64,000 nucleotides of DNA from Mobula hypostoma (Eukaryota): assembly GCF_963921235.1 (NCBI RefSeq), contig NC_086097.1, positions 107,510,001 through 107,574,000 on the forward strand. The letters run 5' to 3'. The position numbers and the translations under genes were made by a program. Below the pieces are notes generated by a model that was given only the letters and a program-made list of their open reading frames with translations, was not told the origin of the DNA and did no database searches. Below, piece by piece: positions 23,465 through 37,145 of this stretch (the stretch's first letter is position 1; each line of letters opens with the position of its first letter).

Positions 23465-26400
23465 CAGCCCCCACGACCCCCCCCAGCCCCCACCACCCCC
23501 CAGCCCCCACGACCCCCCCAGCCCCCACGACCCCCCCAGCCCCCACCACCCCCCCAGCCCCTACGACCCCCCCAGCCCCTACGACCCCCCCAGCCCCCAC
23601 CACCCCCCCCAGCCCCCACCACCCCCCCAGCCCCCACGAACCCCCCCAGCCCCCACGAACCCCCCCAGCCCCCACCACCCCCCCCAGCCGCCACCACCCC
23701 CCCCAGCCCCCACCCCCCCCAGCCCCCACCACCCCCCCAGCCCCCACGACCCCCCCCAGCCCCCACGAACCCCCCCCAGCCCCCACGACCCCCCCAGCCC
23801 CCACGACCCCCCCCAGCCCCCACCACCCCCCCCAGCCCCCACCACCCCCCCAGCCCCCACGAACCCCCCCAGCCCCCACCACCCCCCCCAGCCCCCACGA
23901 CCTCCCCAGCCCCCACGACCCCCCCAGCCCCCACGAACCCCCCAGCCCCTACGACCCCCCCCAGCCCCCACCACCCCCCCAGCCCCCACGACCCCCCCAG
24001 CCCCCACGACCCCCCCAGCCCCTACGACCCCCCCCAGCCCCCACCACCCCCCCCAGCCCCCACCACCCCCCCAGCCCCCACCACCCCCCCCAGCCCCCAC
24101 GAACCCCCCCAGCCCCCACCACCCCCCCCAGCCCCCACGACCTCCCCAGCCCCCACGACCCCCCCAGCCCCTACGACCCCCCCCAGCCCCCACCACCCCC
24201 CCAGCCCCCACCACCCCCCCAGCCCCCACCACCCCCCCAGCCCCCACCACCCCCCCCAGCCCCTACGACCCCCCCCAGCCCCCACGACCCCCCCAGCCCC
24301 TACGACCCCCCCCAGCCCCTACGACCCCCCCCAGCCCCCACCACCCCCCCAGCCCCTACCACCCCCCCAGCCCCCACCACCCCCCCAGCCCCCACGAACC
24401 CCCCCCAGCCCCCACGAACCCCCCCAGCCCCCACGACCCCCCCAGCCCCCACGACCCCCCCCAGCCCCCACGACCCCCCCAGCCCCCACCACCCCCCCCA
24501 GCCCCCACCACCCCCCCCAGCCCCCACCACCCCCCCCAGCCCCCACGACCCCCCCAGCCCCCACGACCCCCCCAGCCCCCACGACCCCCCCAGCCCCTAC
24601 GACCCCCCCAGCCCCCACGAACCCCCCCAGCCCCTACGACCCCCCCAGCCCCCACCACCCCCCCAGCCCCTACGACCCCCCCCAGCCCCCACCACCCCCC
24701 CCAGCCCCTACGACCCCCCCAGCCCCCACGACCCCCTCCAGCCCCCACCACCCCCCCAGCCCCCACGACCCCCCCCAGCCCCCACCACCCCCCCCAGCCC
24801 CCACCACCCCCCCAGCCCCCACGAACCCCCCCAGCCCCCACGAACCCCCCCAGCCCCCACCACCCCCCCAGCCCCCACCACCCCCCCCCAGCCCCCACCC
24901 CCCCCAGCCCCCACCCCCCCCAGCCCCCACCACCCCCCCAGCCCCCACCACCCCCCCAGCCCCCACGACCCCCCCCAGCCCCCACCACCCCCCCAGCCCC
25001 CACCACCCCCCCAGCCCCCATGAACCCCCCCCAGCCCCCACGACCCCCCCAGCCCCCACGACCCCCCCAGCCCCCACGACCCCCCCAGCCCCCACGACCC
25101 CCCCAGCCCCCACCACCCCCCCAGCCCCCACGAACCCCCCCAGCCCCCACCACCCCCCCAAGCCCCCACGACCTCCCCAGCCCCCACGACCTCCCCAGCC
25201 CCCACGACCCCCCCAGCCCCCACGAACCCCCCAGCCCCTACGACCCCCCCCAGCCCCCACCACCCCCCCAGCCCCCACGACCCCCCCAGCCCCTACGACC
25301 CCCCCCAGCCCCCACCACCCCCCCCAGCCCCCACGACCCCCCCCAGCCCCCACCACCCCCCCAGCCCCCACCACCCCCCCAGCCCCCACCACCCCCCCAG
25401 CCCCCACCACCCCCCCAGCCCCCACCACCCCCCAGCCCCTACGACCCCCCCAGCCCCTACGACCCCCCCCAGCCCCCACCACCCCCCCAGCCCCTACGAC
25501 CCCCCCCAGCCCCCACCACCCCCCCAGCCCCCACGACCCCCCCCAGCCCCTACGACCCCCCCAGCCCCCACGACCCCCCCAGCCCCCACGACCCCCCCAG
25601 CCCCCACCACCCCCCCCAGCCCCCACCACCCCCCCAGCCCCCACCACCCCCCCCAGCCCCCACCACCCCCCCAGCCCCCACCACCCCCCCCAGCCCCCAC
25701 GACCCCCCCAGCCCCTACGACCCCCCCCAGCCCCCACGAACCCCCCCAGCCCCCACGACCCCCCCCAGCCCCCACCACCCCCCAGCCCCTACGACCCCCC
25801 CCAGCCCCCACCACTCCCCCAGCCCCTACGACCCCCCCAGCCCCCACGACCCCCCCAGCCCCCACCACCCCCCCAGCCCCCACCACCCCCCCAGCCCCCA
25901 CCACCCCCCCAGCCCCCACCACCCCCCCCAGCCCCCACGACCTCCCCAGCCCCCACGACCCCCCCAGCCCCTACGACCCCCCCCAGCCCCCACGACCCCC
26001 CCCAGCCCCCACCACCCCCCCAGCCCCCACCACCCCCCCCCCCCCCCCAGCCCCCACCACCCCCCCAGCCCCCACCACCCCCCCCAGCCCCTACGACCCC
26101 CCCCAGCCCCCACGACCCCCCCAGCCCCCACGACCCCCCCCAGCCCCTACGACCCCCCCCAGCCCCCACCACCCCCCCAGCCCCTACGACCCCCCCCAGC
26201 CCCCACGACCCCCCCAGCCCCCACGACCCCCCCAGCCCCCACGACCCCCCCCAGCCCCTACGACCCCCCCCAGCCCCCACCACCCCCCCAGCCCCTACGA
26301 CCCCCCCCAGCCCCCACCACCCCCCCAGCCCCCACGACCCCCCCCAGCCCCCACGACCCCCCCAGCCCCTACGACCCCCCCAGCCCCCACGACCCCCCCA

Positions 26401-27335
26401 GCCCCCACGACCCCCCCCAGCCCCCACCACCCCCCCAGCCCCCACCACCCCCCCCAGCCCCCACCACCCCCCCAGCCCCCACCACCCCCCCCAGCCCCCA
26501 CGACCCCCCCAGCCCCTACGACCCCCCCCAGCCCCCACGAACCCCCCCAGCCCCCACGACCCCCCCCAGCCCCCACCACCCCCCAGCCCCTACGACCCCC
26601 CCCAGCCCCCACCACCCCCCCAGCCCCTACGACCCCCCCCAGCCCCCACCACCCCCCCAGCCCCCACCACCCCCCCCAGCCCCCACGACCTCCCCAGCCC
26701 CCACGACCCCCCCAGCCCCTACGACCCCCCCCCAGCCCCCACGACCCCCCCCAGCCCCCACGACCCCCCCAGCCCCCACGACCCCCCCAGCCCCCACCAC
26801 CCCCCCCAGCCCCCACCACCCCCCCAGCCCCCACGACCCCCCCAGCCCCCACCACCCCCCCCAGCCCCCACGACCCCCCCCAGCCCCCACCACCCCCCCA
26901 GCCCCCACCACCCCCCCCAGCCCCCACGACCCCCCCCAGCCCCCACGACCCCCCAGCCCCCACGACCCCCCCAGCCCCTACGACCCCCCCCAGCCCCCAC
27001 CACCCCCCCAGCCCCCACCACCCCCCCCAGCCCCCACGACCCCCCCAGCCCCCACGACCCCCCCAGCCCCCACGACCCCCCCCAGCCCCTACGACCCCCC
27101 CCAGCCCCCACCACCCCCCCAGCCCCCACCACCCCCCCCAGCCCCACGACCCCCCCAGCCCCCACGAACCCCCCCAGCCCCCACGACCCCCCCCAGCCCC
27201 CACCACACCCCCAGCCCCTACGACCCCCCCAGCCCCCACCACCCCCCCCAGCCCCCACGACCCCCTCCAGCCCCCACGACCCCCTCCAGCCCCCACGACC
27301 CCCCCCAGCCCCCACCCCCCCCAGCCCCCACCACC
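23465..27335 (+). repeat. ~3.9 kb C-rich minisatellite, 18-21-bp unit CAGCCCC(C/T)AC(G/C)ACCCCCC(C)
   Basis: About 200 tandem units (length divided by unit size) with variable C-runs; ORFs in multiple frames on both strands. Confidence 0.97.
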
Positions 27336-30189: not shown

Positions 30190-32793
30190 ATCATGAGCAC
30201 TTGGTTGTTGTAGAGGCAATGCAAGGTTTTAAAAAAAAGCCCAGGGCTATTAGGAATTTTTCAGCAGGCTTCAATCATCAAGAGCATTTATTTCTCAGAG
30301 GGGAGGGGCAAGGTTTAAAAAGAGTTTAAGATGCTCTGGAACTTTTCAGTAGGCTTCAATCATTATTATCTATTCGGCACTTGGCAAAGGCAAATAAAAA
30401 AAAGTGAAGTGTAAGTAGAGTGACTGTTGCGTGAGTGGACCAGTGTTAGAGTGGTCAGTTTCGGACTTTGGTTCAAGAGGCTTGGGAGACAAAAGGCAAA
30501 GGCTCTGTTTCTATTAAGTTGTTTTTTTCTTCTTTCTCAATTAGTGCATAGGGAGTGCAGTGAGAATGGGTCCATGGTCAGTGGTTGTTCTTCAGGTGAG
30601 ATGTGGGAACTCTGGTAAACCACCAGTCTCCCTGAAAACTACATTTGCATGAGATGTGACCAACTGCAGCTCCTTACAAACAATATTAGGGAACTGGAGC
30701 TGCAGCTCACATGGGAGAATGAGGAGGTGGTAGATAAGAGCTACAGGGAGGTAGTCACCCCATGTTGCAGGAGGCAGGTGGCTGAGTGACTGTCATAAGA
30801 GGGAAAAAGAAAAGACATCCAGTGCAGAGTACCCCTGTGGCTGTTCCCCTCAAAAATAAGTACACCGTTTTGGGTACTGTTGAGGGGGTACCCTACTAGG
30901 GAAAAGCTACAATGACTGGCTCTCTGGCACTGAGTCTTGCCCTGTGGCTCAGAGGGGAAGGGAGGAGAAGAGGACTGCAGTAGTGATAGGGGATTCCATA
31001 CTTAGAAGAGCAGACAGAAGATTCTGTGGACATTTGCCTCCCAGGTTCCAGGGTCAAGGACCACAACATTCTAAATGAGGAGGATGAATAGCTGGAAGTC
31101 ATGGGACATATTGGTAAAAGTGACATTGGCAGGAAAAGGGATGCGGTCCTGAAGAGAGAATAAAGGGAATTAGGTGGAAATCTGAAAAGCAGGACCTCCA
31201 GAGTATTGCTGCCTGTGCCATGTCCCAGTGAGGGTAAACATAAGATAACCTGGCACATGAATATATGACTGAGAAATTTGCAGCTTTCAGATTTCTGAAT
31301 GATTGCAGTCTCTTCTCAGGAAGGGATGACCTGTACAAAAAGAATGGGTTATACACAAACTCAAGGGGAACCAATATTCCTGTAGGCAGTTTTGCTAGAG
31401 CTGTTGAGGAGGGTTTAAATTAATTTGGCAGGAGGATGGGAAACAGAATGACAGAGATGAGGATGGGGCAGTTGGTATACAATTAGATGTAGTGTGTAGT
31501 GAGGCAGTGAGGAAAGATGGGCAGATGATAGGGCAACATTGCAGTCAGTGGGATAAGTTAAAGTGTAACATGGGGGCAAAATCAAAATAGGTGATGAATA
31601 CAGGACCAAAGGTAATAAATTTGAATGCATGCATTATCCAGTGTTGGATTCTAATGTTTTGATCCAAGGTTCTTTCAGAACTCAGGAAAAAGGCAAAAAA
31701 CTTGTTGCTTCATGATCATTTTATTAAGAGTTGATGGGACAAGGAAAATTGAAACAAACTGTGATAGAGGTCTACTAACAAAAGAAAGAGGCCAGAAAAC
31801 TAGGGTGGTGCTGCTTTGTGGTCGGCTATCTTTTTTACTACAGAGAAAAGGAAAATTCCATTTAAATTTGTAGATAGAGTTAACCAATAAGAAAGCACTT
31901 ATTCAAATACTGAAGTACAAAGAAGCCTCTAGAGCTTTCCAGAATAATACTTTGTATAATATCTAGAGGCATGTTAAACTTGCATATACATAATATTATG
32001 ACCACGAGGAAGCATACTAGACAGTTATTTGTATACTGAAAGATTCAAAGTACATATATTATCAAAGTATGTATGCAGTATACAACTCTGAGATTCTTTA
32101 CCCACAGACAGTCACGAAAGAAAGAAGAACTTCTTAAAATAATAATTGTTGTAAATAATTAATTGTTGAACTGGAAAGAAAATATCAATTAAGCATTCTA
32201 ATCTAAGAATTAACAGAATAAGGTAAATGATATTCCAGTGCAATTAGACATTGGGAGGTGTGACAATATCATTGGAAGGCATCACTGAGTTGTGGCAAAA
32301 AGAAGAATATAGTTGAGAGCATAACATTGTATCAATATGACAGGCAGGTAGGCAGAGAGGGTGGGTGGCTCGGTGGGTAAAAGATGAAATCAAATCCTTT
32401 AAAAAAGGTGACATTAGATCAGAAGATGTAAAATCCTTATGGGCAGAGTTAAGAAACTGCAAGAATACAAAGACCCTAATGGGAGTTATACACTGGCCTC
32501 TGAACAGTAGCCAGGGTGTGAGTACAAATTACAATGGGAAATAGAAAAGGCATGCAATATTACGATAGTGGTGGGGGATTTCAATATACAGGTAGATTGG
32601 GAAAATCAGATTGGTGCTGGATCCCAGGAGATGGAATTTATAAAATGTCTATGAGTTGGCTTTTTAGAGCACCTTGTGGTTGAGCTCACTAGGGGAAAGG
32701 CAATTCTAGATTGAGAGTTGTGGAATGAATCAGGTTTGATTAGGGAGCTTAAGGTAAAGGAACTGTTAGAAGACGGTGATTAGAATATGTTAG
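30190..32793 (+). mobile_element. Degenerate CR1 5' portion (ORF1 remnant and start of EN), interrupted; resumes at 36400
   Basis: ORF1-like sequence 30565-31420 (CAGCTCCTTAC...GAACTGGAGCTGCAGCTC; GATGACCTGTACAAAAAG); EN remnant 32240-32793 including GGGGATTTCAAT. Confidence 0.75.
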
Positions 32794-32991
32794 TGGTCTA
32801 TCTGGCCTACAGTATAATAAGGGACTACTTTATGTTGTAGGGACACGTCGTCGCATGAGCTATTAGGCACATATCGATCTGTTCGTTTGTGCTGGGTTCA
32901 GTTTCTGCCAGTAAAGAACCATGAACCTTAGCTCCCATCTCCAGCATTTTTATTAATAGCATTGTTGTGTAACCAGGCCACAAACACAACA
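32794..32991 (+). repeat. 5' LTR (~200 bp), followed by PBS-like TGGGCGACGAGG
   Basis: TGGTCTATCTGGCCTACAG...CAGGCCACAAACACAACA; repeated at 36000-36399. Confidence 0.88.
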
Positions 32992-33312
32992 AATGGGCGA
33001 CGAGGTTAATGAACCTACATCGTATTGGAATGATAATGACACTCAGAGGAACAGCCCAAGAAGCGAGCTAAGGAAGCGGGAGCACAGACGGTATCAGGAA
33101 TGTCGAGAGACCAAGAGGCACAGTCGGAGCTGCAGCACGTCCAGGCGAGACCACAGCCGGCACTGAACTCCAGGGCTGGGGGTCTGCCTGCCCCAGAAGG
33201 GAGATAAAAAGGAGCAACACATGCACATCTAGACGAAGTGCACTCGTGACGCTAGCAAAAGGTTACGTGAGTCCAAAAAAAGGGAGAACAGGGCTAAATT
33301 AACGTAACAAAG

Positions 33313-34494
33313 ATGGCGATGACTGGAACCATCACAGCATTTGATAGCAGCATTGAAGACTGGGCAATTTACATTGAAAGAGTGGAGTTAGATTGTGATG
33401 CTAACGATGTTAATGATGAAAAGAAAGCCAGTATTTTACTTAATATTATGGGAGCAAAAACATATGGACTGCTACGGAGTTTGTTAATCTCTGAAAAGCC
33501 AGCTGACAAAATGTTCAAGCAAATAGTAGACACTCTCCAACAGCATTTTACAATCGGAATCAGAGCAAAAATGAAAGCATTTCTGAATATTGAGCTGGAT
33601 TGCACAAATTATCCAAACATTTGTCAATTTGGAGCAGGTCTATCGGACGCATTGAGGGACAGGTTAGTGTGTGGCAAGCGCTGTGAAACCACACAGAAGA
33701 AGCTTCTGTGTGAAAGGGACCTTACATTAGAGGAGGTGCTGAACATTGCAATATCAACGGAAACAGCCGCAAGGGGTGCTTCCAGGATACAACAAAAATC
33801 TCTGGAATATACCACAAATAAAATGCAACTGAACGGAAATGAAGGAAAGAAATGTTACCATTGTGGGAACAGGTCACATAACCCGGATGACTGTTGGATT
33901 AAAGACAAAGAATGCAGGAACTGTGGCAAACAGGGCCACATTGGCAGAGTATGCAAAGCTAGTCAACAGCAGAAAAAGGGCAAAATACAGAGAAACAAGA
34001 AACCCCAGAAAGGAAAATACAACAAGGTACACAAAATGAAAGAAGGCAGTTCTGATGAAAGCAGCTCTGACGAAAACGACTCCGACGAAAGTGAATTGTC
34101 TTGTTGGCAACTTCACAGCATGAAAGAGACAGATGATCGAAGAGTAATATGGATCACTCCACAAGTGGCGGGTGTGAGACTGAAAATGGAGTTGGACACA
34201 GGCTCAGCTTTAACAGTGATCCCTGTGCACAACTACAAATGACTGTTTTCGCATATACCTCTGAAACGAACTAAACTTCTACTAAAGACTTACACAGGAC
34301 AGAAAGTGCATCCCGAAGGCAAAATTAAAGTGGTAGTAACCTACGGAGATAAAACACAGCAACTGAACCTCTATGTACTGAAAAACGGAGGACTACTGTT
34401 GCTGGGACGTGAATGGCTCAGGAAAATCCAGTTGGATTGGCACACCATCAAGGCACTCGGTGTGTCGACAAAGGAGGGCAGCTCGGTGGGTAAG
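33313..34494 (+). pseudogene. Gypsy gag-protease, one in-frame TGA at 34240 plus a locally shifted segment near 33550-33620
   Basis: FDSSIEDWAIYIERVE, LRDRLVCG, two zinc knuckles (CYHCGNRSHNPDDC, CRNCGKQGHIGRVC), protease LKMELDTGSALTVI...LLGREWL. Confidence 0.9.
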
Positions 34495-35424
34495 ATGTCC
34501 GCAGCTCTCCTCTCACCAATTGCCGACTAATACAACAACGAGGAGGAGCTAGACAGTGTCGATGATGAGGACGAACGCAGTATCCGTGGCTGCGACTCAG
34601 ATGAAGATACAGAGGATGCAAGGAAGACAGATATTGCCAAAAAGCAGGATGATGAATACTACCTGGAAGTAAAAGAGCAGATGTACCAGGAGAAATTGAC
34701 ATCTCTCAAAAGACAGCTACAGCAGTTACAGGAAGGCACTTTGCAGGAATATCAGAAAAAGATGAAGAAACTAGATCAACAATACAAGGAAAGACTACGA
34801 AATGCAGAGCTTTTTCTGCAACTGGAGACAGAACAAGTGGAAAGGAATTATATTAAAGAGAAGAAAGCAGCAGTGAAGGAATTTGAAGATCAAAAGATAG
34901 AGTTAGAAGAAAAAGATGATTGAGAATGAGAGGCTAACAATGGAACTCACATGAGATTCTATGGCGGTAAAGCCAGTAACGACTAGGAAACTAAGGAGAA
35001 GACCTAATGACCCTGCTCCAATTACAGACAAAAGACGAAAACCTGCACCTACGCAGTTAAATTACTTGTTAACAGATGAACAGATAATGGAAGATCCGCA
35101 AACTCTGAATAAGCTTAAAATGCCGAAAAGACCAGCATCTCTGTCTCTCCTGAACATCTTCCCAGCACTCCTGCTGAATCACCAGCACAAAGATATGAAG
35201 CACGAATAGAAGCTGGAAAGTTATATTATGTTAAGAAATGGTATCATAAAGGTCAGGCTATCTATTTGGAATCTAAGGAGAATACGAAGATTGGCTGTGT
35301 AATTAGCTCAGTTGGAACAAATGAGATATGGGTAAGGAAGACAAATGATAGCACAAAGATGCGTATATATCTAGGACAGCGGCAAATAGGAATCTTCATT
35401 ATACAGAGACGATCTGCTGCCTAG
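34495..35424 (+). pseudogene. SUDS3: Processed (intronless) pseudogene of SIN3-HDAC corepressor subunit SDS3
   Basis: MSAALLSP...DEDTEDA...[73 protein letters not shown]...[11 protein letters not shown]...[14 protein letters not shown]...[17 protein letters not shown]...RRSAA*; colinear with recalled SUDS3 from start to stop; stops at 34528 and ~34952, frameshifts near 34905 and 35145. Confidence 0.95.
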
Positions 35425-35999
35425 AATTCTTAGCAAGTTGGAAGCGCACATCTCTTAACTTCCTATGCTCAGAGGTCAACTTTTCATGACCTTTATATGG
35501 AAATCTGTATTAAAACAAACAAGTTTATTGTCAGACTGAAGAACACACTATTTAAAGACACTTTTCAATGCCATCTCAGTTTTGATGATTGTACATATCT
35601 TTAAGAATAAGATTCACCTTTTCACGGATTTCACTTTGCTTTCGTCATCTTTGCAAGATGGAGGTGACTACTCTTTATGGCTGGAACCTGCCAATTTGAG
35701 GATTGTTCAATTTATTCCAGTCAATAGAGGGCAGACCTATTTGCTTCAGTGTCGGACAATCTAGAGAAGACACCCCCCTCCCCCCAAGACTTGAGTTATA
35801 AATGGGTCTTAGACCAAAAGTAAAAAAAAAAGGCTTGTTATAATTCGATATTATTACGTGACTTTGTTATAATTTGATATTATTAAGTTACTAAGTAAAC
35901 AAATGGTAGGCTTTTGTATGTTAAGGGTAGACATATTTGATTAGCATAGTGACCCAGTAAAAAAAAAGTTGATACACTATTAAAATAAAAGGGGAGGAG

Positions 36000-36399
36000 T
36001 GTACTGTATGGCCTACAGCAGTGGTCCCCAACCTCCAGGCCACGGACAGATACTGATCCGCGAAGCATGCAGTCTGATCTGGGCCAACATTTACGTGCCG
36101 CGCGACACCTAATTAATTAGCTTGTTTATTTCGGCTTTGTTCTTAAAGATGTGCGAGGTGCATTCCAGCTACCGCTGCACTCCTGCCTGCTTTGTGGATC
36201 GGTATCGGTCCGTGGCCCAGAGGTTGGGGACCACTGGCCTGCAGTATAATAAGGGTTGTTGCATGTGCTATTAGGCACGTATTGTTCTGTATGTGTGTGC
36301 CGAGTTCAGTTTCTGCCAGTAAAGAACCATGAACCTTAGCTCCTGTCTCCAGCATTTTTATTAATAGCATTATTGTGTGACCAGGCCACATACACAACA
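36000..36399 (+). repeat. 3' LTR (with MITE insertion), preceded by PPT AAAAGGGGAGGAG
   Basis: TGTACTGTATGGCCTACAG...CAGGCCACATACACAACA. Confidence 0.88.
36019..36236. mobile_element. hAT MITE inserted in the 3' LTR
   Basis: CAGTGGTCCCCAACC...GGTTGGGGACCACTG flanked by 8-bp TSD GCCTACAG/GCCTGCAG; absent from the 5' LTR. Confidence 0.9.
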
Positions 36400-37145
36400 G
36401 ATAGAATTCACCTTGCAGTTTGAGAGGGGAAGCAAGCCATGATCATAATAAATGGCGGTGCAGGCTCGAAGGGCTGAATGGCCTACTCCTGCACCTATTT
36501 TCTATGTTTCTATGTTTCTATCAGTATTACAATGGAGTAAAGGGAATTACAGAAGTGGAAGCTGGTCGAAGTTGATTGGAAGGGGACACTAGCAGCGATG
36601 ATGGCAGAATAACAATGGCAGGAATTTCTGGGAGAAATTTGGAAAGTGTAAGATAGATAAATCACAAAGATAAAGTAGTATTCTAAAGGGAGGCTGACGC
36701 AACCTTGGCTGACAAAGGTAGTCAAAGCATAAAAAGAAAAGAGAGGGCATTTAATACAGCTAAAATTAATGGAAAGTTAATTAATGGAGGACTAGGAAGC
36801 TTTTCAGAACTAACAGAAGGCAACTAAAAATGCAATAAGGATAGAATGGATGAAATATGAAGGTAAGCTTGTCAATAATATAAAAGATGATACCAACAGA
36901 TTTTTCAGATACACGAAGAGTAAATGAGTGTTGTGAGTAGCCATTGGACCACTGGAAAATGACGCTGGGGAGTTGATAATGAGGGGCAAAGAAATAGCGG
37001 CTGAATATCTTGTATTCGTCTTCACTGTGGAAAACACTAGCTTGAAATTCAAGAGGGTTGGGGGACAGTAGTGAGCATAGCTGCTATTACTAAGGCAAAA
37101 GTGCCTGGGAAGTTGGAATGTCTGAAGGTCGATAAGTCATCTAGA
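36400..37145 (+). mobile_element. Continuation of the degenerate CR1 ORF2
   Basis: ATAGAATTCACC resumes the EN end (NMIEF) interrupted at 32793; later GTTGATTGGAAGGGG...CAACCTTGGCTGACA. Confidence 0.75.

Follow-up and report, generated by a model that had tools for sequence, protein, structure and literature searches.

How does a spliced copy of a single-copy chromatin gene come to stand in the place of pol in a long terminal repeat (LTR) retrotransposon? The question is raised by an element at positions 32794–36399 of a 64,000-nt stretch of the genome of the ray Mobula hypostoma (GCF_963921235.1, NC_086097.1, 107,510,001–107,574,000, forward strand; hereafter the window, with position 1 at its first letter). 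A preliminary description read it as a Gypsy provirus with the order 5' LTR, primer binding site (PBS), gag, protease (PR), SUDS3, polypurine tract (PPT) and 3' LTR, and both this architecture and its coordinates held. It further proposed that host SUDS3 mRNA was captured by template switching, that the product was mobilised in trans as a non-autonomous element, and that it carries a piece of the host silencing machinery. The capture and the mobilisation are supported by the results below; a use of the silencing machinery is not. We consider it very probable that SUDS3 mRNA was captured by template switching, that the chimera was copied in trans in a burst, and that SUDS3 was passive cargo.

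A family of chimeric elements

A search at the DNA level scored 40 of 659 candidates and yielded 45 matches; one at the protein level scored 150 of 371 candidates and yielded 150. The exact pattern of the gag-PR/SUDS3 junction occurred 151 times in the genome, and its reversed control 0 times. This pattern was fitted by 33 of 73 examined copies (72 fetched loci and the window element), from which we estimate roughly 330 chimeric copies, a rough figure because the sample favours well-preserved copies. The first sample held 32 loci, 28 found with a DNA query containing the long 3' untranslated region (UTR) and 4 from the protein list. The second held 40 loci taken from among the higher entries of the protein list, leaving out the long-UTR copies fetched earlier. 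A common 5' joint was present in 65 of the 73 copies; in the other 8, the first match begins within the coding sequence.

Both LTR ends were located in 35 copies. Their target-site duplications (TSDs) were perfect in 23, had one mismatch in 7 and two to four mismatches in 5, against 0.3% and 3.4% in the controls, and comprised 32 different 5-mers. Whole units therefore integrated independently, and the SUDS3-carrying element belongs to a family of many copies and does not represent a single event. Contigs bridging the junction were also present in independent public runs, X10 (organism D) and X14 (organism E). Misassembly, which the preliminary description had listed as a way to overturn its reading, does not survive these contigs. 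An assembly artefact or a segmental duplication is further contradicted by the exact junctions lying on many contigs and by the diversity of TSDs. Nothing was found in favour of either, and we regard both as scarcely conceivable.

At window position 34623 (SUDS3 codon 43), where the family has a variant, the host-type state prevails in organism D (X10) and the derived one in organism E (X14), which suggests that different sub-lineages expanded in different species. Of the listed runs, none is recorded as RNA, and contigs of those guessed to be RNA are not taken here as evidence of expression. In one such run, X17, a contig (record 26, window 34409–34904) also crosses the PR/SUDS3 joint and continues into undeleted host-type sequence, either as an assembly join with host mRNA or as a chimera that predates, in organism F, the 24-nt deletion described below.

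Among the best 120 proteins listed, ray 'SDS3-like' names came from two Mobula species only. The six such proteins that were aligned carry the 8-residue deletion of the family, and the family explains these spurious gene annotations. No fusion protein at the PR/SUDS3 junction was among the 5 proteins found of 957 candidates in a protein search with longer junction forms.

In loci L070–L172 and the window element, the LTRs occur in two length forms, ~198 and ~223 bp. Within a copy, the forms of the two LTRs differ in 14 of 31 cases, as if independent, in contrast to a single-nucleotide polymorphism near the LTR start that agrees between paired LTRs in 31 of 36 copies. Frequent tandem-repeat collapse after insertion and slippage in reverse transcription are candidate causes of the length mismatch.

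The captured mRNA and its switch points

The 12 exons of the parent SUDS3 gene extend over ~59 kb on G000:C78 and encode an intact 319-aa protein (one match to the splice-site pattern); intron 7 is an AT-AC intron. In the window SUDS3, all 11 host exon joints are contiguous and all 11 introns, the AT-AC intron included, are absent. Identity to the host is 93.9% over 930 aligned nt, and the nearest named proteins, among the matches listed, are from rays (Mobula, Pristis). The captured mRNA spans from 19 nt before the ATG to 339 nt into the 3' UTR.

The host UTR and pol-bearing sister elements (the presumed helper) have the 7-nt motif GGGCAGC in common at the 5' joint, and the chimera crosses over there (34476–34482). 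Twelve further nucleotides of SUDS3 5' UTR (34483–34494) keep the PR frame into the SUDS3 ATG. Two types of 3' joint were found. The long-UTR type occurs in 37 of the 73 copies, the window element among them, and the short-UTR type in 32, with 4 copies unclassified. The short-UTR joint, also present in run X14, lies at UTR+113 on the microhomology GACAGAC and includes 14 extra bases of the pol end. For the two 7-nt microhomologies, the rough chance is 4e-4 each. The gag-PR part and the pol end with its tail match the same pol-bearing loci, so that the cargo sits between discontinuous parts of one LTR family. The identity of the 5' joint across copies, on a shared microhomology, favours the proposed capture by template switching.

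A 24-nt deletion in SUDS3 was present in every copy covering the site (35/35 long-UTR, 21/21 short-UTR), and substitutions are also common to both types, which points to a single capture followed by a second 3' switch. The deletion is flanked by short direct repeats. Deletion between such repeats is expected of slippage by reverse transcriptase (RT).

Could the cargo instead have arrived as a processed pseudogene, made by a long interspersed nuclear element (LINE), that entered an already pol-deleted provirus and was then amplified with it? The genome is rich in LINE fragments, the window element sits in one, and the long-UTR joint lacks a perfect microhomology. However, no poly(A) was found at the cargo end, where the host 3' UTR runs on beyond both 3' joints, and neither a TSD around SUDS3 alone nor a duplication of element sequence around the cargo was seen. 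The cargo ends are also the ends of the pol deletion, and two of the three joints have 7-nt microhomologies. The preliminary description had itself noted the lack of a clear TSD around SUDS3, and had named a poly(A) tail and TSD confined to SUDS3 as the marks of LINE-mediated insertion. With these hallmarks absent, we judge such an origin very improbable.

Pol-bearing sister elements

A relative from the protein search, used as query, gave 64 matches to pol-bearing elements in the same genome (46 scored), most of them with stops. Most of 30 pol loci have the LTR, the leader, gag-PR and the tail in common with the window element, and 21 of them passed a filter of 80% identity over at least 700 nt of gag-PR. 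Net gag-PR divergence between the chimeric and the pol-bearing group was 0.004. The pol-type junction pattern had 88 exact genomic occurrences (reversed control 0), corresponding to roughly 170 copies. Exact chimeric junctions thus outnumber pol-type ones ~2:1 (151 vs 88). These sisters, together with the element-wide TSDs, support the view of the chimera as a non-autonomous element mobilised in trans.

The domain order of the helper is PR-RT-RNaseH (RH)-integrase (IN), as given by Pfam in the relative P0005, and matches in the ray's own genome are colinear with the relative P0002 over up to 997 of 1003 aa. The family is therefore Ty3/Gypsy. Other hallmarks are present as well, namely TG..CA LTRs, a tRNA PBS, a PPT and a short TSD. 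In translation, the nucleocapsid has two CCHC arrays, a trait described for the Mag clade and also for Micropia/Mdg3 in the part of the source covered here (PMC2577118). We use 'Mag-like' for the family as a lead only.

Chimeric and pol-bearing copies are intermixed in the gag-PR tree, with 5–6 changes between the two states, 4 of them forced by supported branches, in a tree whose bootstrap has not settled and which contains one misaligned long row. The intermixing is suggestive, not proof, of recombination between the two kinds of copy. Chimeric L158 and pol-bearing L117 pair as sisters in this tree, fully supported and on short branches, possibly through gene conversion or duplication. Candidate gag haplotype columns were dropped, as they were unlinked. 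The protease region of the relatives P0001–P0005 has 69% identity to a K02A2.6-like element of milkfish, which is high for rays versus teleosts; horizontal transfer possibly lies behind this likeness.

From these data, the history of the family may be pictured as follows. A Gypsy (Mag-like) particle would have co-packaged spliced SUDS3 mRNA. RT would have switched to this mRNA at the 7-nt microhomology just past the protease and come back only at the extreme end of pol, so that 1.3 kb of host mRNA took the place of RT-RNaseH-integrase (~2.8 kb). The product would have kept all cis signals (LTRs, PBS, leader and PPT), and the pol-bearing sisters would have copied it in trans to a few hundred loci in one burst. 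More switches within the burst may have produced the 24-nt deletion, the second 3' joint and a second host insert in one sub-lineage. SUDS3 was probably passive during the burst, and all sampled copies have decayed neutrally since. The anatomy, the parent, the sisters, the joints, the TSDs, the copy numbers and the neutral decay are direct observations; co-packaging, mobilisation in trans and the passive role of SUDS3 during the burst are inferred from them.

A second host insert

A 950-nt insert, flanked by a 10-nt duplication, lies at one site within SUDS3 in 10 of the 40 second-sample copies (L133, L134, L139, L147, L150, L152, L160, L161 (2049–3001), L162 and L166). It is antisense sequence of the RING region of RNF213 (E 7e-32). 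The insert ends the reading frame in 9 of the 10 copies, 19 codons past host codon 217; nine of the 10 have the short and one the long 3' joint. A genome-wide search for it scored 40 of 156 candidates and gave 41 matches. A lineage without the C-terminal third of SUDS3 therefore kept spreading. Transcripts with the insert could act as antisense RNA.

Loose ends in runs X15 and X17 that look like the RNF213 insert are joined to the SUDS3 3' UTR before 35457–35463, which points to one more deletion variant of the element with both cargoes. A linked variant block first taken as exon skipping proved to be misaligned RNF213 insert.

Coding potential, age and selection

In the window element, SUDS3 is in frame with PR. 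Across the family, the modal spacings between anchors from the gag start to the SUDS3 ATG (120, 261, 198, 324, 222 and 81) are all multiples of three, and the last step is in frame in 28 of 32 copies. No codon has a majority stop among the chimeras. The commonest stops fall at arginine codons whose variation is of the kind expected from CpG decay, and likewise in pol-bearing copies. The spacings and the lack of a majority stop argue that the spreading element had one open Gag-PR-SUDS3 frame. The whole frame is open in none of the 73 copies, the longest stop-free stretch being 560 aa of the ~710 needed.

Did this frame itself aid the spread? One alternative accepts the same origin and holds that it did, for reasons other than SUDS3: translation would provide mixed particles with additional Gag-PR, and a stop codon close to the 3' LTR would stabilise the RNA. 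Besides the in-frame spacings and the absence of a majority stop, the excess of chimeric over pol-type junctions fits this idea. So does the frequency of the short-UTR type in the second sample (29/40, in a sample that left out long-UTR copies fetched earlier). The RNF213 sub-lineage, however, spread despite an early stop followed by >1 kb, and shorter length by itself can favour non-autonomous derivatives. We therefore hold a benefit of the open frame to be doubtful, while taking it more seriously than any other alternative considered here.

The tree built from the SUDS3 sequences of 44 copies is star-shaped, with 2 of 42 inner branches supported and end branches of median 0.042. LTR pairs have a median Kimura two-parameter (K2P) distance of 0.10 (n = 34), near the 0.114 between copies. 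Together these indicate one burst, whose age we express as divergence. Singleton changes in the 44 copies gave an omega of ~1.0 (402 non-synonymous and 135 synonymous, vs 404 and 135 expected). With all events in 78 copies, omega was 0.87–0.89 and the stop rate 1.06–1.08 of the synonymous rate. No purifying selection on the SUDS3 cargo was thus seen among copies (omega 0.87–1.0), and its decay after insertion is neutral. Lower Nei–Gojobori (NG86) pN/pS values within groups (0.52–0.60) were rejected as a sign of selection, because the same SUDS3 data gave ~1 when the counts were class-corrected.

As a scaffold, Sds3 binds both Sin3 and HDACs, and its coiled coil mediates dimerisation, according to the part of the source covered (PMC8800102). 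The family-wide loss of 8 residues falls within the solved dimerisation coil (PDB 4ZQA span), so part of this coil is missing from all copies that cover the site. The loss and three family-wide amino-acid changes hit residues conserved in the sawfish, stingray, caecilian, bichir and gar orthologues, and they therefore arose in the element. Net synonymous difference (pS) from host to family was 0.064, vs 0.054 expected from the host branch alone, which speaks against excess synonymous change on the element stem.

These results bear on the idea, implied by the preliminary description, that the element made use of the silencing machinery it carries. In such a scenario SUDS3, released by PR or tethered to Gag and altered in its dimerisation, would act as a decoy of SIN3-HDAC and ease silencing of the family. 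The full-length in-frame capture and the scaffold role of Sds3 are in line with it, as is the intact SIN3-interaction segment described below. Opposed to it are the changes and the deletion at conserved residues, the lack of a stem excess in pS and the absence of any copy with the whole frame open. We consider it improbable. The same low probability attaches to the stronger proposal that a translated Gag-PR-SUDS3 fusion, through its altered SUDS3, disturbed SIN3-HDAC repression in the ray germ line and let chimera and helper burst. If true, a host corepressor, stolen whole from its complex, would have been turned against silencing.

Several observations weigh against capture by template switching with SUDS3 as passive cargo. 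The long-UTR 3' joint, the type of the window element, lacks perfect microhomology. Family-wide differences from host SUDS3 comprise 12 synonymous and 3 non-synonymous changes besides the deletion, a ratio that is unpolarised at the DNA level, as only host and family were compared. The SIN3-interaction segment (PDB 2N2H, residues 195–219) has no family-wide changes and is untouched even in the RNF213 sub-lineage. Both family-wide events that affect the frame, the 5' joint and the 24-nt deletion, keep it, which would happen by chance about 1 time in 9. Variants common to 7–10 copies lean synonymous (6:4 transitions, p 0.10). Finally, a fast burst with a short stem leaves little power to detect selection on master copies. 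We nevertheless prefer passive cargo: given the neutral decay and the dimerisation-coil loss, use of SUDS3 by the element is unsupported, and the spread of a sub-lineage with truncated SUDS3 agrees with this.

The copy in the window

All oriented parts of the window element lie on the plus strand. It is flanked by 5-bp TSDs, GTTAG (32789–32793) and GATAG (36400–36404), with one mismatch between them, and its target was a LINE fragment. The unoccupied homologous LINE site elsewhere in the genome (L064) has a single 5-mer at the insertion point, so the imperfect repeat noted earlier is a true target duplication. The 5' LTR (TG...CA, ~198 bp, 32794–32991) is degenerate in its first 14 bases. The PBS (32995–33005) is complementary to the tRNA-Ser(GCT) 3' end at 10 of 11 positions; the tRNA pattern derived from it had 15 genomic matches, and the three scanned were all called Ser(gct). 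The gag region with its two CCHC arrays (33313–34140, end approximate; zf-CCHC E 0.0044, below cut-off) falls 39 nt short of the family mode, the difference lying in a single interval. PR (34141–34475, start approximate) has a DTGS motif at ~34195 and a stop at 34240–34242.

The spliced SUDS3 coding sequence (34495–35424; PF08598 E 9e-10) had been called complete and intronless. It does run from start to stop without introns. It is not intact: besides two stops (34528 and 34952), it has lost 29 nt near 34904, the family-wide 24-nt loss included, and 1 nt near 35145. The long-UTR type 3' UTR (35425–35762) comprises the first 339 nt of the host UTR and has no poly(A). At 35763–35986 the element resumes with the last pol codons and a 3' non-coding tail. 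RT, RNaseH and integrase had been described as absent. A tblastn search of the window with the full-length relative P0005 indeed matched gag-PR only (E 8e-107; next match E 0.67), yet about a dozen codons of the extreme pol end remain (35763–35801, stop 35799–35801). The PPT follows at 35987–35999, and the same motif precedes the 3' LTR in sister copies.

The 3' LTR (36000–36399) is split by the later insertion of a 218-bp inverted-repeat DNA element (36019–36236; 54-nt arms, 8-bp flanking duplication) that is private to this copy. It is probably a common miniature inverted-repeat transposable element, which we take to be hAT-like from its 8-bp duplication; relatives lie in intron 1 of the parent SUDS3 gene (L068 5195–5531). 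The two LTRs align over 148 nt at 89% (K2P 0.126). With SUDS3 broken and a stop in PR, the window copy is a dead element. Elsewhere in the window, a C-rich minisatellite spans 23465–27335 (3.9 kb, 18-bp unit, ~211 copies, 90% matches).

Comparison with known systems

The SUDS3 family is an unusually complete record of LTR transduction in a vertebrate, with parent, helper, switch points, recombinants and a second captured mRNA in one genome. It shows how a single-copy chromatin gene can gain hundreds of processed copies from one capture, with neither LINE machinery nor selection involved, and retrocopy counts per parent may therefore reflect one selfish family. In cartilaginous fishes, SUDS3 is one of the five top parents of retrocopies, according to a recent preprint (bioRxiv 10.64898/2026.06.26.734816). 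The part of it covered here ties non-mammalian retrocopies to LINE/CR1/Tx1 and selective filtering, and an LTR carrier goes unmentioned there. The family may well be the cause of this SUDS3 excess. No description of it was found in the literature searched, a coverage outside which lie subscription journals, Repbase/Dfam and bioRxiv supplements. The parts covered of 10.1101/2024.09.09.611499 and 10.64898/2026.06.24.732306 contain nothing on it (0 occurrences of SUDS3 in the latter).

LTR-mediated retrocopies of animals, as described in the sections of Tan et al. 2016 covered here (PMC5131818), share with the family a spliced sense mRNA between halves of an LTR element and microsimilarity at the switch points. 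They also share the lack of a poly(A) or own TSD on the cargo, secondary retroposition and multi-gene cargo. Unlike those cases, which in the sections covered are few per genome (PMC5131818), the SUDS3 capture is present at no fewer than 151 loci, outnumbers its helper and carries a whole coding sequence in frame with gag-PR.

The crocodilian endogenous retroviruses CrocERV29 and CrocERV31 captured KIT-ligand and nectin3, respectively (PMC4299795). Like the SUDS3 element, they hold a whole host mRNA in a vertebrate LTR element, replicated together with it, and have in-frame deletions common to copies. They are described, in the part of that source covered, as retroviral, with 9 and 6 copies, a separate open reading frame near or replacing env, and purifying selection (PMC4299795). 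The SUDS3 element, by contrast, is Gypsy-type, with pol replaced, a fusion to PR, hundreds of copies and no purifying selection seen. Non-autonomous TR-GAG elements of plants also keep gag, with or without PR, and lack RT-RH-IN; unlike the SUDS3 element, they are plant elements and by definition have no host cargo.

Maize Bs1 is likewise a pol-less LTR element with several host mRNA pieces and switch points common to its copies. It differs in being a plant element with 1–5 copies and gene fragments, and in being described as functional, in the sections covered (PMC5131818). The mechanism, LTR-mediated retroposition, is thus already known; the scale of the SUDS3 family and its in-frame full-length cargo are unusual.

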